Under the pieces are notes generated by a model. The model saw only the letters and a program-made list of their open reading frames with translations. It ran no database searches and was not told where the DNA came from. From contig CAVWOI010000025.1 in the NCBI GenBank assembly GCA_963756245.1, positions 6,245-70,244 of the forward strand: 64,000 nucleotides of DNA, read 5' to 3'. Shown piece after piece: positions 18,899 through 25,836 of the stretch. The first letter of the stretch is position 1; the number at the start of each line of letters is the position of its first letter. The translations under genes were made by a program, and so were the position numbers. Source of the stretch: an uncultured Alphaproteobacteria bacterium (GTDB lineage Bacteria; Pseudomonadota; Alphaproteobacteria; Rhizobiales; Xanthobacteraceae).

Positions 18899-20242
18899 AT
18901 GACGAAAACCGATCCGGTACAGGCCTTCGAGGCGCGCTTCAAGATGTACGGCCTCGACGGCCGGGCGCTCGACATCCTCGCCGAAGTCTGGCCGGTGATC
19001 GAACCGACGCTGGACCAGGCGATCGCCGAGATCATCACCGCGATCCGCTTCCTGCCCCGCGTTGGCGAGATCGTCGCCAGGAACGCGGAGCTCTACAAAA
19101 AACTCGAAGCCGCGCATTTCCGCGCGCTGCTCGGCGGCAAGCTTGACGGCGCTTACGCCGAATCGTGCCGGCACACCGTGGCGCAGGAGGCGGCGATCGG
19201 GCTCGATGCCCGCGTGCGCTCTACCGCCGGCAGTTACGTGCTCAAGGCGGCGCTCGATGCGCTGGCGCGCAAGTATTGGTTTTCCGCCGCGAAAGTCGCC
19301 GAGCGCGGCCGGGTCGTGTCGCAGGCCATCAGCTTCGACGTCGCCAACGCCATGACCTTGCATCGCCAGGCCGCCGAGCAGGCGAGCGCGGCACGGCGCG
19401 GCGCCATCGACGACGCGATCACGGAATTTGCCGGCGCCATCGGCGAAGTGGTCGAGGCGATCAAGGAAGCCTCGGGCTCGCTGACCGCGACCTGCTCGAC
19501 GCTCAACCAGGTCGCCGACGATACCCGCGGCCGCATGGCCTCGGCATCGTCGGCTTCGGCCGAGACCACGCAACGCATGGCGGCGACGGTGGCCGCCACC
19601 GAAGCGTTGTCGGAATCCATCGACGAGATCGGCCAGCAGTCGACCCGCGGCTTGAGCATGGCGCAGTCGGCGGCGACCGACGCCGCGCGCACGCAAGACG
19701 TCATCCGCTCGCTCGACGACGCCGCCGAGCGCATCGGCTCCGTGGTCGGCGCGATTTCGGCGATCGCGGCGCAGACCAATCTGCTGGCGCTCAACGCCAC
19801 CATCGAGGCGGCGCGCGCCGGCGAAGCCGGCAAGGGCTTTGCCGTGGTCGCCGCCGAAGTGAAGACGCTCGCCAACCAGACCTCGCGCGCCACCGACGAC
19901 ATCTCGCACCAGGTCGCCGCCATCCAGGACGCGACCAAGCGCTCGGTCGAGGAAATCTCCTCGATCGCGCGCGCCATCGGCGAGCTCACCGGCGTCTCGA
20001 CCAGCATCGCGTCGGCGGTGCAGGAGCAGGCGGCGACGACCAGCGCCATTGCCGAAAGCATTCAGGACGCCGCCGGCCACACCTCGCAAGCCTCGAGCGA
20101 AATCGGCTCCGCCGCCGAGGCGGTGACCCGCGGCGACGGCGCCGTCGGCGAAATCACCACCTGGACGGCGCGGCTGTCGGCGCGCGCCCACGATCTGGAA
20201 ACCAAGGTGGCGACCTTCTTCACCCGCGTCCGCGCGGCCTAA
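18899..20242 (+). CDS. soluble methyl-accepting chemotaxis protein with globin-coupled-sensor-like N-terminal domain
   Basis: No TM segments. C-terminal MCP signalling hairpin ([35 protein letters not shown]). The N-terminal ~160 aa follow the layout of globin-coupled sensor N-termini. Confidence 0.85.
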
Positions 20243-20660: not shown

Positions 20661-21056
20661 GCTCTGACCGCGGCGCCGAAGCGCCGCAGCTCAGTCCAGG
20701 CCGCGCTTCACGCGATGCAGCGCGCAGGCGTTACCCGCGCCTTGGCATCGCGCTTAAGCGAAGCACCTCGCGCGCCGGTCGTAATGCCGGCGGGGTCGAT
20801 GCCCGGACCGCCCGGGAGCGGAAGTGACGAGCTTCCGCCCGCAGGAACCGCACCCGCCCCGTCAGTCGGCGTCACCGGTTGACGTCCCCTTACGGTGGGC
20901 GGGATCAGGCCCGGTAATGCAATCGCGCCGCCCATGTCAAATGATTCGTTGCGCGCGAATTTGTCTCGATAATTCGCGCGGTTAGGCGCCGCGCTTTTTT
21001 GCGCGGCGAACGCCGGCGCTTATCGCGCGCAGAGACGGCAAAGATTCGCAACGCTA

Positions 21057-21086
21057 GGATGGGTAGAGCGAAGCGAAACCCATCAC
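21057..21086. repeat. REP half-element (family C)
   Basis: ggatgggtagagcgaagcgaaacccatcac. Same family as the inverted pair at 25755-25836. Confidence 0.75.
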
Positions 21087-21133
21087 TTTCTAGACGAGCC
21101 GCCGTGGGTTAAAATAAATGTGGAGATCGTGCG

Positions 21134-21346
21134 ATGGACGCAACGCTGATTTTGATCGATAGCGCAGCAGAACTGGGCCGCGCCCGCGCGCTCGTCGAAC
21201 GGCTATGGGATTCAAACGATCCGGCCGACATCGAACGGCTGCAGGCGCAAGCGCGTCTGATCGAAGTCTATGAGGAGAGCAAATGGCCGCGGCGGCCGGC
21301 GAGCACCGCAGCGCTGATCCGACACCTGATGGATCAATATTCGTAG
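21134..21346 (+). pseudogene. truncated HigA-like antitoxin (N-terminal half only, HTH lost)
   Basis: 70-aa ORF. ARALVERLWDSNDPADIERLQAQARLIEVYEE...LIRHLMDQY parallels E. coli HigA (..ALELVDHLLLNDPENPLLDL..ITAWEE...VIRTLMDQYGLT..). It stops where the HTH should begin, at the edge of a REP element. Confidence 0.55.
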
Positions 21347-21431
21347 CCCGGAGTGAGCGCAGCGAAATCCGGGAACGCCAGTCCAGCTCGCGACGGCGGC
21401 CCCGGATTTCACTTCGTTCAATCCGGGCTAC
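21343..21431. repeat. REP inverted pair (family D)
   Basis: gtagcccggagtgagcgcagcgaaatccggg (21343-21373) and cccggatttcacttcgttcaatccgggctac (21401-21431). Confidence 0.85.
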
Positions 21432-21436
21432 GCTCG

Positions 21437-21766
21437 CTAGTCCGTCAACGCGGTCAGCATCTTTGCGGCGCGGCTCAATTCGTTGTTGTTGAGCTTGGAC
21501 AGCTGAATGTTGATCCGCTGCAGCAGCCGGCCGCGCTCGCCGGTCGGCACCGTCATGGTGCCGGCGCTGAACAGAACGGCTTCCGGGACTTCGAGAACGC
21601 GCGCGATCTTCTCAATTGATTCGAAGGACGGCGCCACGTTGCCGCGCTCGATCTTGCCGACCATGGCGACCGACAGTTCGAGTGCATCCGCGAGCTCGCG
21701 CTGGTTCATGTCCCGCGCTTTGCGGTAATGGCGCACGTTGGCTCCGAACGACTCTCTCAAGGTCAC
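21437..21766 (-). CDS. XRE-family HTH transcriptional regulator
   Basis: NVRHYRKARDMNQRELADALELSVAMVGKIERGNVAPSFESIEKIARVLEV is a Cro/C1-type HTH. Start at GTG 21766, 5 nt after ggaggtg. Confidence 0.8.
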   Translation of the reverse strand: MTLRESFGANVRHYRKARDMNQRELADALELSVAMVGKIERGNVAPSFESIEKIARVLEVPEAVLFSAGTMTVPTGERGRLLQRINIQLSKLNNNELSRAAKMLTALTD

Positions 21767-21901
21767 GGCGCACCTCCGCCGCGAACCTGATCTAGCGCTA
21801 TTTCCGCGCAAGCGATTGCAGGTAGATAATTGTAATAATAGTGACTTGAAAGTACGCTTTATACAATTTATAGCTTATCAATACACGCGGGAGGAGGCCC
21901 C
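21767..21901. promoter_or_regulatory. AT-rich divergent promoter/operator region between the two XRE genes
   Basis: Local AT-rich block 21815-21885. Inverted heptamers aattgta (21828-21834) and tacaatt (21862-21868). Near-palindrome tatacaatttata. Confidence 0.4.
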
Positions 21902-22297
21902 GTGCAGGGCTCGCGCAAAACAGATGCTTACGACCGCGAGGTCGGCCTGCGGGTGCGTACGCTGCGCATATCCCGCCGCATGTCGCAAAGCGACCTCGGC
22001 GAAAGGCTCGGCATCACTTTCCAGCAGATTCAGAAATACGAAAACGGCGCGAACCGCATCGGCGCCGGGCGTCTGCAACGCATCGCCGAGATTTTCGAGG
22101 TGCCGGTCGCGGCGCTGTTTGGGGCGAGCCGGCGCGAGGGCAGGGCAGGCGTCGACCCCTTCGAAGGGCTGCGCACCCCGGGCGCGGTGCAACTGCTCGA
22201 AGCCTACGGCCGCATCGGCGACCGCGTGATCCGCCGCGCGTTCCTGCGCTTTGCCGAGCAAGTGGCCGTGACCTCGCAGCGATCAAGCCGCCGTTAG
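21902..22297 (+). CDS. XRE-family HTH transcriptional regulator
   Basis: GLRVRTLRISRRMSQSDLGERLGITFQQIQKYENGANRIGAGRLQRIAEIFEVPVAALF is an HTH family abundant in Rhizobiales. GTG start preceded by gggaggagg. Confidence 0.8.
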   Translation: MQGSRKTDAYDREVGLRVRTLRISRRMSQSDLGERLGITFQQIQKYENGANRIGAGRLQRIAEIFEVPVAALFGASRREGRAGVDPFEGLRTPGAVQLLEAYGRIGDRVIRRAFLRFAEQVAVTSQRSSRR

Positions 22298-22457
22298 AGA
22301 CCGGAGCATGCGCACCCCATTCGCCCCGCTTCGCGGCGGCGGATGAGCGCGATCACCCTCGCAACGTGACGCAACAGAGGGCGCAGCAAAATCCGAATGC
22401 AGCAGTGCCGCCCTCGATAGCGGCCCCGAACTTCGCTGCGATCAATCAGAGCTATTT

Positions 22458-25400
22458 TCAATCAGTCTTAAGCTTTGATATAAGTTGATCCTTCTTATAA
22501 TCCTGTAGTTGTTTGCTAATGAATTTGCTTCTCTCGGCACCGCGCGCGCCCGTTACGTCTGCACTAAGGTCCGCCATTAAGCGCCGGTATTGTGTGTCTA
22601 GAGCTTCGTCTTGCAATGGAAAGCGCACATATCCGTCAAGCAATTTTACAAATAGCGATTCGCAAAAGAATTGACGCTCGTCCAGCGAATTCCTGAGCGA
22701 CTCTACTCGCCGGATAAATTCAGGCAAACGCAAATCTAGATACAAGCCCTCATTTAAGAATCTAATTGTGATCGATTCATTCCCGGCCGGGCTTCTCTCG
22801 GCCAACATCAGACGGAGCTTCTCGGTTCCCAAATTATCTCTAAGCAACGCGGACACTAGATTGGGTATTCCCACGAGCAGAGAGCGAAGCACAAACGGCT
22901 TCATTTCGCCAAAAACCTTTCCAAGATTTATCGTGGCCCCGCCCACTTTCAGATCAGTATCGAACGCGGTTCGTAACATCACAATTACATAGCCGATGAG
23001 ACGGCCCCATGCATTTAAAATAATACTCAAGTGGTGCGACTTTTTCTCAGCTCCAATCTCTTCAAGGTTCTTTAGCGCAATGGTATAGACGCGCAGGGTG
23101 GTGAACCATTCTATTGCTACGGAACCAACCTCGGGGCGAGCCAACTCTCTGGGTTTAACTGCTACCTCCGGCCCCTCGTGGTGGTCGAGTAATTCATCCC
23201 TTTCCTTATCTGTGAGTTCCCTTTCAAGTAACTGTTCCGTTACGGATGCAAACATAGCTTCAATACTCTTGTCCCTCGGTAACTCAAATCCATCTACCAT
23301 CGGCAAGCCGGGGAGGCCTGGAAATTCTTTGCCCAAGCGTTCGTCGACATCTAAAAATCTTTTTTCCAATGCTTCAATTATTTCATCGTCAAAACGCTTT
23401 AGACCACAATATATATCTATCTCTTGCGGAAAACGGTGCGCCGAATTGATAATATCCAACTCGAAGTCTCTGCTTATTACCATCCGTTGCGCGGCAAAAT
23501 ATGCAAGAAACATATCATGTTGAAACTGCACGTTGTTGCCCACCAGTGAAAAAAGGCGGGCATCGCAGAAACTCCTGATTAACCCCTGAATATCCTGTTC
23601 GAATCCAATTTCGTTTAGATACGTAGCGCACCAGGAGTAGATTTGGGCGAAATCTACCGAATATACGTTCGTTTCTGTCATTCTTTGAGCAAGATACGCG
23701 AGGAGGCCAACTCTATTGTGGTAGTCAAAGACCTCGCGCCTTGCGTCCAGCTTGGCTTTTCCGAGAACTTTCTCGACAAAATTTTCCACAAGCGATGCTG
23801 TGTTTGTCGGCTGGAATGACGCGTCCTGTTCAAATACTCGAAACAGCAAACTTAGATAGACCGGTGTTAGCGGTAAGCCCAATTGTCGAAACCGAGCGAT
23901 GATTTGATCCAAAGCCACGTCGATGTTGACGGATAGTGGGGGCTTCGATCTTCGAATGAATTCCCTGACCTGTGACCGAGAGTAGGCTTGAACGTGAAGG
24001 GTGTCGGTAATGTTGGGAAACTCTAGCTCTAACAAAGCATCAATCTTTCCGCTGAATGTGCTTCGTACCAATATGATAAATTGGTTGCGATGAAAATTCT
24101 CCACTAATTTCCTAATGAACTCATTTTGCTCCGTATTAGTCGGGCTGACGTTTTCGAATATGATTAGCGCAAGACCCTCGGCCAATATTACATCAAGGCT
24201 CCTGCCGAGGGAGGTAAGGTCGGGCGCTTGGGCTTTTAGCAGTCCGATGAAAGACGCGGGATAGTTTCGGAGATTAGCGCAGTCTATTATGAGCGGTAGA
24301 CGAGGGGTAGTCGTCGTGCTGCCTTTCAGCAAGTAGTTCAATGCGATTTGTCTCGCCAGGCTTGTTTGCCCATGTTCAAAAGGGCAAAATATAAGCACGT
24401 TATTTTTGTAATCCAAAATGCGTTCGAATAAGACTCTCGTGTAAGTAAAGGGGTCTGTCGATGTTTGCTCCTCTTTCTTTGTCACGTCGATTCGAGCGAG
24501 CGGCGGACAGACGAAAACATCCGATAGTTTCTTACCAGTAGTTGTTTCGTTGAAATAATCTAGCTTCTCTACAAGAGCCACCTCAGCAAGCCATCGACGA
24601 TATCTCTTGAGATTTATCCTGAGTGGCTGATTAACCCAAAAGTTCTTTGACTCGGTGTTAACATAGAAAACTCCCTGAGGCGCGACGTTTTCGCCAACCC
24701 GAAATGCGCGTTGGTTGTCGAAATACGTTTGAAAGGTCACCTCGACACGAGTGCGATCTGGAGCAAGAGAAATTATGCAATACCCATTCAAATAATTTCT
24801 GCTAGAAAATAAAGATGGAGCTTGGACGAACGCCGTGCTCCCGAGAGGCGATGTTAGCGTTGCCGGTTCTGCCCGATGCAAGTGTCCAAAAAGATGAATC
24901 TTTGACTTATGATTAATTGTCCTTTGTAGTTCTGAGGCGCTGTCGTCCTGAAACCAGGCAAGCGGGTGATGTTGCAGCGAAATAATGTGCCTATCAGCAA
25001 GAACTTTCCCAAATGCCTCATTTAATGCGAGATCCGGAAAATTGAGCCGTCCGTGCTCATTACCCTTCAGAGATGCGACGGAAAACGCGGAGCTATTTAA
25101 TGCCACAAATGCGAGTTTAGCAGTTGGAAAATCCCAAATATTATAGAAGGGGTTGGATTTTGCAGCCTGCGTAGCCGAAAGTGATTTCATAAACTGGGCA
25201 TACGCATCGACCTTCTGGCGAACCAATACTGGAACTTTGCCTGCAGCGTATAAATCGTTGAAATACTTGTGATCGCCCAACCTCGTGCCGATCATATCCA
25301 ATTCTGAGGGCAGATCTTCGCAAGCTTTGCGACTTACATCATGATTTCCCGAGCCAAAAACAAAGCTATCTAGATCAATCGATGTGGTTTCAAGAATCGG

Positions 25401-25613
25401 AATTAAAAGCATCTCCATGAAATAATCATAGGCTTGATCTTCATCTGGATCATTTACGAGGTCTCCAGAAAAAACAACATAATGCGGTGCTAAATCGGTA
25501 TCGCATATTTGTGCGAGGTCCTTGATGAATGCGTCAAGGACAATTTTTTGGTCAGTCGCATGGCGACGAGTTATATGGGCGTCGCTCAAACACAGTATGT
25601 TTATGCGCTCCAC
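22458..25613 (-). CDS. metallophosphoesterase-NACHT/STAND-like fusion protein (candidate defence protein)
   Basis: Uninterrupted 1,051-aa ORF in AT-rich DNA. GTG start preceded by an aggggggac SD-like run. Domain motifs are listed in the sub-features and finding 1. Confidence 0.85.
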   Translation of the reverse strand: MERINILCLSDAHITRRHATDQKIVLDAFIKDLAQICDTDLAPHYVVFSGDLVNDPDEDQAYDYFMEMLLIPILETTSIDLDSFVFGSGNHDVSRKACEDLPSELDMIGTRLGDHKYFNDLYAAGKVPVLVRQKVDAYAQFMKSLSATQAAKSNPFYNIWDFPTAKLAFVALNSSAFSVASLKGNEHGRLNFPDLALNEAFGKVLADRHIISLQHHPLAWFQDDSASELQRTINHKSKIHLFGHLHRAEPATLTSPLGSTAFVQAPSLFSSRNYLNGYCIISLAPDRTRVEVTFQTYFDNQRAFRVGENVAPQGVFYVNTESKNFWVNQPLRINLKRYRRWLAEVALVEKLDYFNETTTGKKLSDVFVCPPLARIDVTKKEEQTSTDPFTYTRVLFERILDYKNNVLIFCPFEHGQTSLARQIALNYLLKGSTTTTPRLPLIIDCANLRNYPASFIGLLKAQAPDLTSLGRSLDVILAEGLALIIFENVSPTNTEQNEFIRKLVENFHRNQFIILVRSTFSGKIDALLELEFPNITDTLHVQAYSRSQVREFIRRSKPPLSVNIDVALDQIIARFRQLGLPLTPVYLSLLFRVFEQDASFQPTNTASLVENFVEKVLGKAKLDARREVFDYHNRVGLLAYLAQRMTETNVYSVDFAQIYSWCATYLNEIGFEQDIQGLIRSFCDARLFSLVGNNVQFQHDMFLAYFAAQRMVISRDFELDIINSAHRFPQEIDIYCGLKRFDDEIIEALEKRFLDVDERLGKEFPGLPGLPMVDGFELPRDKSIEAMFASVTEQLLERELTDKERDELLDHHEGPEVAVKPRELARPEVGSVAIEWFTTLRVYTIALKNLEEIGAEKKSHHLSIILNAWGRLIGYVIVMLRTAFDTDLKVGGATINLGKVFGEMKPFVLRSLLVGIPNLVSALLRDNLGTEKLRLMLAERSPAGNESITIRFLNEGLYLDLRLPEFIRRVESLRNSLDERQFFCESLFVKLLDGYVRFPLQDEALDTQYRRLMADLSADVTGARGAERSKFISKQLQDYKKDQLISKLKTD
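22461..23468 (-). other. domain: unassigned helical C-terminal region (aa ~716-1051)
   Basis: Leu/Glu/Arg-rich, helix-like. I can see no TPR, WD40, LRR or other repeat periodicity. Confidence 0.4.
23469..24431 (-). other. domain: NACHT/STAND-like module with degenerate Walker A (aa ~395-715, approximate)
   Basis: NVLIFCPFEHGQTSLARQIA (P-loop position), GLALIIFENV (Walker-B-like), LHVQAYSRSQVREFIRR, LPLTPVYLSLLF, NNVQFQHDMFLAYFAAQ. Confidence 0.6.
24684..25613 (-). other. domain: calcineurin-like metallophosphoesterase (aa 1 to ~310)
   Basis: All five MPP motifs in order: LCLSDAH, FSGDLVND, GSGNHD, SLQHHP, LFGHLH. Confidence 0.8.
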
Positions 25614-25754
25614 GGGGAAGTCCCCCCTATCTCTGGTCGGGATTACTTTCGCGAATTTCGCTGAAGTCTATCGAGGATTATTCGTCATGTCTCGAATCTC
25701 AATTATTACCCACAGGGTGGCCTTGCCTCGCGTAGTCCGAATTAAAGCGGGCCC

Positions 25755-25836
25755 GTAGGAGGGGTAGAGCGCAGCAAAACCCGTCATCTTTGTGCCGGGG
25801 AGCGGTGGGTTTCGCTGCGCTCTACCCACCCTACGA
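25755..25836. repeat. REP inverted pair (family C), also a likely yidC terminator hairpin
   Basis: cgtaggaggggtagagcgcagcaaaacccgtcat (25755-25788) and ggtgggtttcgctgcgctctacccaccctacg (25805-25836). Confidence 0.85.

Follow-up and report, generated by a model that had tools for sequence, protein, structure and literature searches.

According to the current view, nucleotide binding at a lysine-containing P-loop activates STAND/NLR immune receptors throughout their range from bacteria to humans, and a single gene of an uncultured alphaproteobacterium of the Xanthobacteraceae raises the question of what becomes of such a receptor when this lysine is missing. The gene lies on the reverse strand of a stretch of 64,000 nucleotides (contig CAVWOI010000025.1, positions 6,245 to 70,244), which we call the window and whose positions are used throughout. 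It encodes a distant homologue of the anti-phage protein DS-8, and a preliminary description of this DNA had reported that its NACHT-like module has lost the glycine and the lysine of Walker A. Our comparison indicates that the loss is shared by a whole clade of the family. We favour, with somewhat more confidence than doubt, a solitary DS-8/PDC-S60 sensor-effector with a conserved, remodelled NACHT switch, which would not hydrolyse nucleotide and which may well still hold a nucleotide-like ligand. The parts of the gene to which this argument refers are the following (NBD, nucleotide-binding domain; AF2, AlphaFold2; WHD, winged-helix domain).

22458..25613 (-): whole gene, DS-8 / PDC-S60-family protein; open reading frame (ORF) of 3,156 nt with a GTG start, 1051 aa (PADLOC, NCBIfam, Pfam)
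24624..25613 (-): N-terminal calcineurin-like metallophosphoesterase, residues 1-330, presumed effector (Pfam, motifs, Foldseek, profile)
23979..24416 (-): NBD core of the STAND module, residues 400-545 (AF2 secondary structure, NLRC4 profile match, Foldseek)
24360..24386 (-): degenerate Walker A, C410-P-F-E-H-G415-Q416-T417-S418 (translation and alignments)
24150..24173 (-): Walker B strand LALIIFEN, residues 481-488 (translation and alignments)
24063..24065 (-): R517, at the tip of strand b4 in the sensor-1 region (family alignment)
23892..23894 (-): R574, five residues before G579-x-P581 (family alignment)
23724..23978 (-): helical domain of the STAND module, residues 546-630, with R546, R550, the GxP motif and N604 (alignment and AF2)
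23454..23723 (-): winged-helix domain, residues 631-720 (Pfam nSTAND_NTPase4 at 651-707, AF2, alignment blocks)
23490-23531 (-): NACHT-like WHD motif V-Q-F-Q-H699-D-M-F-L-A704-Y-F-A-A (alignment blocks)
22461..23453 (-): C-terminal all-helical region, residues 721-1051, presumed sensor (AF2; conserved family-wide)

DS-8 is a one-gene anti-phage system of Escherichia coli (WP_032203427.1, 1014 aa) that combines a metallophosphatase with a NACHT domain and carries the working name MNAC; each of the substitutions D52A, N84A and K375A abolishes its defence (DeWeirdt et al., Science 2026, PMC13092281). Its Walker A reads GDEFCGK375ST, and its first 399 residues are printed in the supplement of that paper. 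The PADLOC hidden Markov model PDC-S60, which comes without a curated cut-off in the tool, matches residues 4-867 of our protein against profile positions 1-857 of 1027 (E=1.1e-75, 253.5 bits). The NCBIfam model DS8_antiphage (NF053861) matches residues 9-712 (E=4.3e-40) and scores 137.3 bits against a cut-off of 790, below its equivalog threshold; because of this gap we class the product, on its profile scores, as a distant, non-equivalog homologue of DS-8. Pfam finds PF00149 Metallophos at residues 5-247 (35.6 bits, cut-off 21.5) and, slightly below threshold, nSTAND_NTPase4 at residues 651-707; Pfam NACHT gives no match on the query itself and recognises only 10 of 46 family members, compared with 45 of 46 for nSTAND_NTPase4. 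Like DS-8, our protein is one chain of roughly 1000 aa in which a metallophosphoesterase, a NACHT-type NTPase and a helical tail follow one another; it also has the equivalents of the catalytic D52 and N84, forms a single-gene island and is significantly homologous over residues 4-867. It differs from it in being only about 21% identical, in having Gln for K375, Cys for the first Gly and E-N in Walker B, and in belonging to a clade that gains R517 and R574 and loses R570, R611, R700 and E704.

The presumed effector domain is well preserved. All five metallophosphoesterase motifs are complete, as had been noted before (D11-x-H13, G50-D51, G89-N90-H91-D92, H215-H216 and G243-H244-x-H246), and G50, D51, G89, N90, H91, H215, G243, H244 and H246 are invariant in the alignment of 12 sequences. 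D51 corresponds to DS-8 D52 and N90 to DS-8 N84, in columns that are invariant or nearly so, and the profile also matches Rv0805, Icc and SbcD. The protein is a candidate one-protein, NLR-like anti-phage sensor.

The P-loop region, which the preliminary description had placed at 24355-24400, reads CPFEHGQTS at residues 410-418 (24360-24386, reverse strand) and is flanked by the strand NVLIF and the helix SLARQIALNYL, in agreement with AF2 strand b1 at residues 405-411 and an AF2 helix at 412-433. C410 occupies the column of the first Gly and Q416 that of the Lys, so that the canonical STAND Walker A GxxxxGK[ST] is absent and the residue equivalent to the essential K375 of DS-8 is Gln. Four independent alignments (MAFFT with n=12, MAFFT with n=146, BLASTP against DS-8 and a profile against NLRC4) agree on this site, and BLASTP against the published DS-8 N-terminus pairs G374-K375 with G415-Q416. 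The earlier alignment had been made by eye and Pfam NACHT misses the query, which could be taken to mean that a canonical Walker A lies elsewhere or that the module is no P-loop NTPase at all. However, a regular-expression search over the 1051 residues finds neither GK[ST] nor G....G.[ST] at any other place, the AF2 strand-helix junction falls where the four alignments put it, and the fold and profile matches are NACHT proteins; we give this explanation practically no weight. The conserved P411 was considered as an argument against a P-loop and rejected, since the AAA+ Walker A motif GPPGxGKT also carries Pro at the equivalent position.

For Walker B, the reading in the preliminary description, with Phe in place of the first Asp, came from a misalignment by one position. 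The hydrophobic run of the strand ends with F486, and E487 occupies the Asp column, which holds Asp in 82 of 82 members that have the Walker A lysine (hereafter Lys-type). In the second column, that of the catalytic acid, the query has N488, a residue also present in 20 of the 82 Lys-type members. In these alignments Walker B appears conservatively altered, D to E followed by N, and not lost.

Is the missing lysine a peculiarity of this copy or a property of its lineage? We searched 1.84 billion cluster representatives exhaustively with HMMER; 2,923 sequences matched the family at E<=1e-3, of which 387 reached E<=1e-30, and a second, word-indexed homologue search with a profile added almost nothing. 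The alignment sample consists of the 150 best hits together with word-index hits and is biased towards the neighbourhood of the query. Among 124 full-length representatives the Walker A Lys column holds K in 82, R in 18, A in 12, Q in 7, G in 3 and L and V in one each, and the prevailing motif of the family is G-x-x-E-x-G-K-[ST]-[ST]. The lysine is absent from all 22 members of one clade, which have Gln, Ala or Gly and in one case Arg at this position. FastTree recovers this Lys-less clade with a support of 100 after removal of the P-loop and Walker B columns, and IQ-TREE (LG+C20 PMSF, 46 sequences) recovers the same 22 members with an SH-aLRT of 99 when all diagnostic columns are removed. Within the clade, a Gln subclade of eight members, which includes the query and also P0007 with its Arg, stands beside an Ala/Gly subclade of 14. 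The clade itself is nested in a 33-member clade (support 100) whose remaining members are of the Lys or Arg type. Since the state is clade-wide at only about 25-30% identity of the members to the query, the loss of the lysine is best read from the tree as old and inherited, an evolved variant rather than a broken copy.

In the homologue alignment that the preliminary description had proposed as a check, the lysine is missing as a conserved state and close homologues likewise lack GKS/T at this position; of the interpretations offered there, a functional variant or pseudo-NTPase gains support, while an inactivated relic does not hold for this copy. Recent, private damage in a decaying gene could be argued from the loss of DS-8 function in K375A, from the visibly broken state of some family copies and from P0067, a private K-to-A change inside a Lys-type clade. 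Against it stand the identical state in 22 of 22 representatives of a deep clade, an intact ORF of 1051 aa and the intact effector motifs. Moreover, dN (nonsynonymous substitutions per site) between our gene and the 70%-identical P0003 is 0.23 for the whole protein, and the NBD, at 0.25, lies within the 0.20-0.27 of the other domains and evolves no faster than these; we report dN per domain in place of dN/dS, since dS (the synonymous counterpart) is saturated at this identity. Decay of our copy is thus highly improbable. The change in P0067 arose independently. That protein shows none of the coupled changes described below and lacks E413 as well; judged by its residues it resembles simple decay, and it forms a contrast to the Lys-less clade.

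Damaged copies are frequent in the family. An IS3-type insertion sequence (IS) element interrupts P0005 after residue 649 (L007 8001-12179), and in the P0004 copy a frameshift separates the phosphoesterase from the remainder (L004 5574-8727). In the otherwise canonical part of the family, the lysine is replaced by Arg in 18 of the 124 representatives, for which the tree requires no fewer than 15 changes, and all other motifs are kept; examples are P0007, P0041, P0056, P0080, P0135 and a copy on a Sinorhizobium meliloti plasmid (L014 3932-7156). Such tolerance of Arg is unusual for a P-loop NTPase, and the Walker A Lys position of this family is unusually labile. Of the plasmid relatives checked, that of S. 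meliloti is of the Arg type and that of Bacillus thuringiensis of the Lys type, and none is a cultured, named carrier of the Lys-less form. A relative was found in one of 24 genomes of the same genus; it is of the Lys type, 26% identical and has an internal TAA stop (L002 1297-4674). No family relative was found in the phage collection, and a protein-query search of genome contigs returned none.

Much of the motif is retained in the Lys-less clade: E413 in 88-93% of members, G415 in 100%, T417 (where the Ser/Thr that binds Mg is expected) in 88-93%, S418 in 71-88%, an acid at 487 in 100%, R546 and R550 in 100%, as well as P581 of the GxP motif and N604. R546 and R550 are conserved in all groups of the family. 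Other positions differ between the two types as follows.

Position 410: Gly in the Lys type; varied in the Lys-less clade
Position 411: varied in the Lys type; Pro in the Lys-less clade
Position 416: Lys in the Lys type; Gln, Ala or Gly in the Lys-less clade
Position 488: Asp in the Lys type; Asn in the Lys-less clade
Position 517, tip of b4: Asp, Thr or Ser in the Lys type (Lys/Arg 10%); Lys or Arg in the Lys-less clade (86%)
Position 570: Arg or Lys in the Lys type; Glu or Gln in the Lys-less clade, paired with the gain at 574
Position 574: Glu in the Lys type (Lys/Arg 6%); Arg or Lys in the Lys-less clade (100%)
Position 611: Arg or Lys in the Lys type; Asn in the Lys-less clade
Position 634: Lys in the Lys type; Gln or Arg in the Lys-less clade
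Position 700, WHD motif F-[RK]-Y-R-x-F-x-E-Y-F: Arg in the Lys type; lost in the Lys-less clade
Position 704, same motif: Glu in the Lys type; lost in the Lys-less clade (query FQHDMFLAYF)

Furthermore, Gln416 occurs together with Glu487 in seven of seven cases, and the Arg revertant P0007 has Asp at 487. Because motif residues are retained and positions 517 and 574 have acquired conserved basic side chains, the pattern looks, at the level of the alignment, like remodelling of the pocket and not like its abandonment. We describe the coupling solely as a set of clade synapomorphies, as there are too few independent events for more. With neither the lysine nor the first glycine, and with Asn at the position of the catalytic acid, a canonical Lys-dependent hydrolysis cycle is not to be expected, and the NACHT switch is probably hydrolysis-dead in this branch. 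We nevertheless take the module to be a selected, working part of the protein.

The overall fold of the module is kept. The AF2 model of the query (mean predicted local distance difference test, pLDDT, of 80.6), like the other AF2 models built here from shallow alignments of 11-12 sequences, comprises a phosphoesterase sandwich, a five-stranded NBD (b1 405-411, b2 439-444, b3 482-489, b4 511-518, b5 535-541), a helical domain at 546-617, a winged helix at 631-713 and an all-helical C-terminus. Foldseek against the PDB retrieves NLRP3, NAIP/NLRC4, NOD2, NLRP9, Avs4 and ORC/Cdc6 with the central part, and SMPDL3A/B and purple acid phosphatase with the N-terminus. A sequence profile of the central module matches NLRC4 with E=2e-5, pairing GkT with GKS and the Walker B liDn with LLDG; this alignment is weak around b4, where residue 517 falls within about two residues of the NACHT sensor-1. 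The models and profiles together indicate that the STAND/NACHT order of NBD, helical domain and winged helix is maintained. Animal NLRC4, NLRP3 and NOD2 are the best structure and profile matches of the central module (with a Foldseek probability of 1.0, and for NLRC4 the profile match given above) and share this domain order; they differ in their canonical GKS/T Walker A, their leucine-rich-repeat sensors and their CARD/PYD effectors. The WHD motif of the query resembles F-x-[HY]-x-x-F-x-x-[YF]-F-x-A, which we take to be the corresponding motif of animal NACHT proteins.

Does the remodelled pocket still hold a ligand? We are inclined to think that it binds a nucleotide-like ligand without hydrolysing it, because the Thr at the Mg-ligand position, the acid of Walker B and a pair of arginines are near-invariant and new basic residues are predicted to lie by the pocket. 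The principal alternative is a nucleotide-free scaffold, that is, a pseudo-NTPase which binds nothing, in which the trigger of the sensor alone drives activation and oligomerisation and the kept motif residues serve folding. The module has neither of the two signature residues of the P-loop and lacks the second acid of Walker B, and R700, E704, R570 and R611, which are plausible nucleotide contacts in Lys-type members, were lost together. AF2 shows no phosphate-binding loop in the query and a canonical one in the Lys-type homologue P0010, which was modelled likewise from an equally shallow alignment (b1 407-412, loop 413-417, helix from K418, pLDDT 80). A slight relaxation of the NBD points in the same direction. 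On the other hand, T417, S418, G415, E413, the acid at 487 and R546/R550 are conserved at 88-100% (S418 at its upper value) at about 25% overall identity, the basic residues at 517 and 574 are new and conserved, and the confidence of AF2 at the P-loop is low (64). We regard such a scaffold as the less probable reading, though nearly as likely as ligand binding.

Several observations weigh against the reading that we favour. In the AF2 model of the query, helix a1 begins at residue 412 directly after b1, without an intervening loop, and the pLDDT is 64 at residues 411-420 compared with 87-88 on both sides; the comparison with P0010 would weakly favour a collapsed, empty phosphate site. The position of R517 and R574 relative to the pocket is modelled from secondary structure only. 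In evolutionary terms the coupled changes come down to what is essentially a single event, as synapomorphies of the clade, and an independent-pairs test of position 416 against 517/574 has only three to four contrasts and cannot reach significance. The ratio of NBD to whole-protein identity is 0.84 in the Lys-less clade and 0.97 in the Lys type at comparable overall divergence, compared with 1.26 and 1.18, respectively, for the helical domain, which is thus better conserved in the clade; from these ratios the NBD seems slightly relaxed, not released. Moreover, IS insertion, a frameshift or a premature stop has disrupted several individual family copies, and a defence activity of the Lys-less clade would be extrapolated from a relative whose DS-8 model our protein matches at 137 bits only. 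Finally, K375A kills DS-8, so that loss of the lysine could by analogy mean loss of function unless it is compensated.

Such compensation is conceivable. WNK kinases have no catalytic Lys in the canonical motif, and a neighbouring strand provides it instead. The fold is unrelated and the likeness is one of analogy only, but it suggests a model in which R517 or R574 takes the place of the Lys at 416. We tentatively propose, as a rather speculative refinement, a “with-no-lysine” NACHT that would still bind a nucleotide or a related phosphorylated ligand. Its positive charge for phosphate binding would have moved from the P-loop to R/K517, at the tip of the neighbouring strand b4, and to R/K574, on the helix before the GxP motif, and Gln416-Glu487 would replace the Lys-Asp contact. 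If this is true, nature has here rewired a STAND immune switch to act by itself and without hydrolysis.

In the mechanism that we prefer, which is drawn from homologues, namely DS-8 and further antiviral STAND proteins, the C-terminal helical region would sense a phage cue. The NACHT module would then oligomerise as a conformational switch without NTP hydrolysis, its pocket possibly holding a nucleotide-like ligand through G415, T417, S418, E487 and the arginines, and the phosphoesterase effector would be unleashed. The branch would have given up the Lys-dependent cycle once, anciently, and its pocket would have been remodelled by the coupled changes.

Immune receptors without a canonical P-loop are not without precedent, and the preliminary description is only partly right in calling such a loss unusual for the class. 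Among plant NLRs, rice Pb1, Arabidopsis ADR1-L2 and others have lost the P-loop naturally or function independently of it (PMC3478704). They resemble our protein as STAND immune receptors that act without the canonical P-loop mechanism, and they differ as eukaryotic NB-ARC proteins that are proposed to serve as helpers or scaffolds with other NLRs, whereas here no partner is visible and the effector is the protein's own. In bacteria, a 2026 bioRxiv preprint describes the Walker A and B motifs of KpAvs8, of the PD-lambda-4 family, as degenerate, which suggests a lack of ATPase activity (10.64898/2026.01.04.697583). KpAvs8 is likewise an antiviral STAND protein; it belongs to another STAND family with another effector and sensor, and the degeneracy is stated there for one homologue and not as a clade. 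Both cases are also precedents for a nucleotide-free scaffold. We found no description in the literature of a Lys-less clade within the DS-8 family, and no mention there of PDC-S60 or nSTAND4 in this context.

The plant systems suggest one further possibility, namely that our protein is the sensor of a pair and requires a P-loop-competent helper STAND protein encoded elsewhere, like P-loop-degenerate sensor NLRs of plants that act with paired or helper NLRs (PMC3478704). However, no second family member was found in the genome of the window, which is 95% complete, and no conserved neighbour was found across five loci of the Lys-less clade, which lie after yidC, after groEL, twice after dnaG-rpoD and in an integrase/AIPR island. 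The protein also keeps its own intact effector domain, and we consider a pair distinctly unlikely. As a solitary sensor-effector, the Lys-less DS-8 branch offers a simple, genetically tractable test of NLR-type switching without canonical NTP binding. It also carries a warning for annotation, as “DS-8-like” matches include a mechanistically different subgroup.

The gene forms a single-gene island directly downstream of rpmH-rnpA-yidC, with a G+C content of 46% where the genome has about 64%. Two elements resembling repetitive extragenic palindromic (REP) sequences mark its borders.

22376..22454 (no strand): REP-like palindromic element right after the stop codon, boundary of the low-GC island
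25754..25835 (no strand): REP-like hairpin in the interval from the start of the gene to the stop of yidC, at the opposite end of the variable slot; conserved in the closest relative, G007

In G007, the closest relative searched, with 90% identity across yidC, the same REP-bounded slot, which is equivalent to window 21441-25751, holds about 1 kb instead. It contains a gene for an AbiEii nucleotidyltransferase toxin (L009 2438-3121, reverse strand; Pfam 1.2e-18) and a small upstream ORF, which replace the XRE pair and the DS-8-like gene. Because the slot carries an AbiEii gene there, the site after yidC is a variable defence site and behaves as a hotspot. The REP-like elements belong to a family of GC-rich palindromes of about 80 nt that are 72-90% alike and bracket the cassette downstream of yidC, with copies at 21342-21432, 21055-21110, 22376-22454 and 25754-25835. 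Two divergent genes for XRE/HTH_3 regulators adjoin the defence gene (21437-21811, reverse strand, and 21902-22297, forward strand), in a segment that is absent from G007.

Other members of the clade have comparable surroundings. P0003 is a single-gene insert after groEL (L003) with 48% GC in flanks of 62-65% GC, P0008 and P0005 are single-gene inserts after dnaG-rpoD (L005/L006 and L007), and P0004 lies in an island with integrase, resolvase and AIPR genes. Lys-less members thus recur as low-GC single-gene inserts downstream of conserved housekeeping operons without mobility genes (L003, L005/L006, L007 and the window). About 2 kb from the island, the window also encodes a soluble methyl-accepting chemotaxis protein (18899-20242, forward strand) with an MCPsignal domain (5.7e-29) and an N-terminal Protoglobin domain (5.9e-7).

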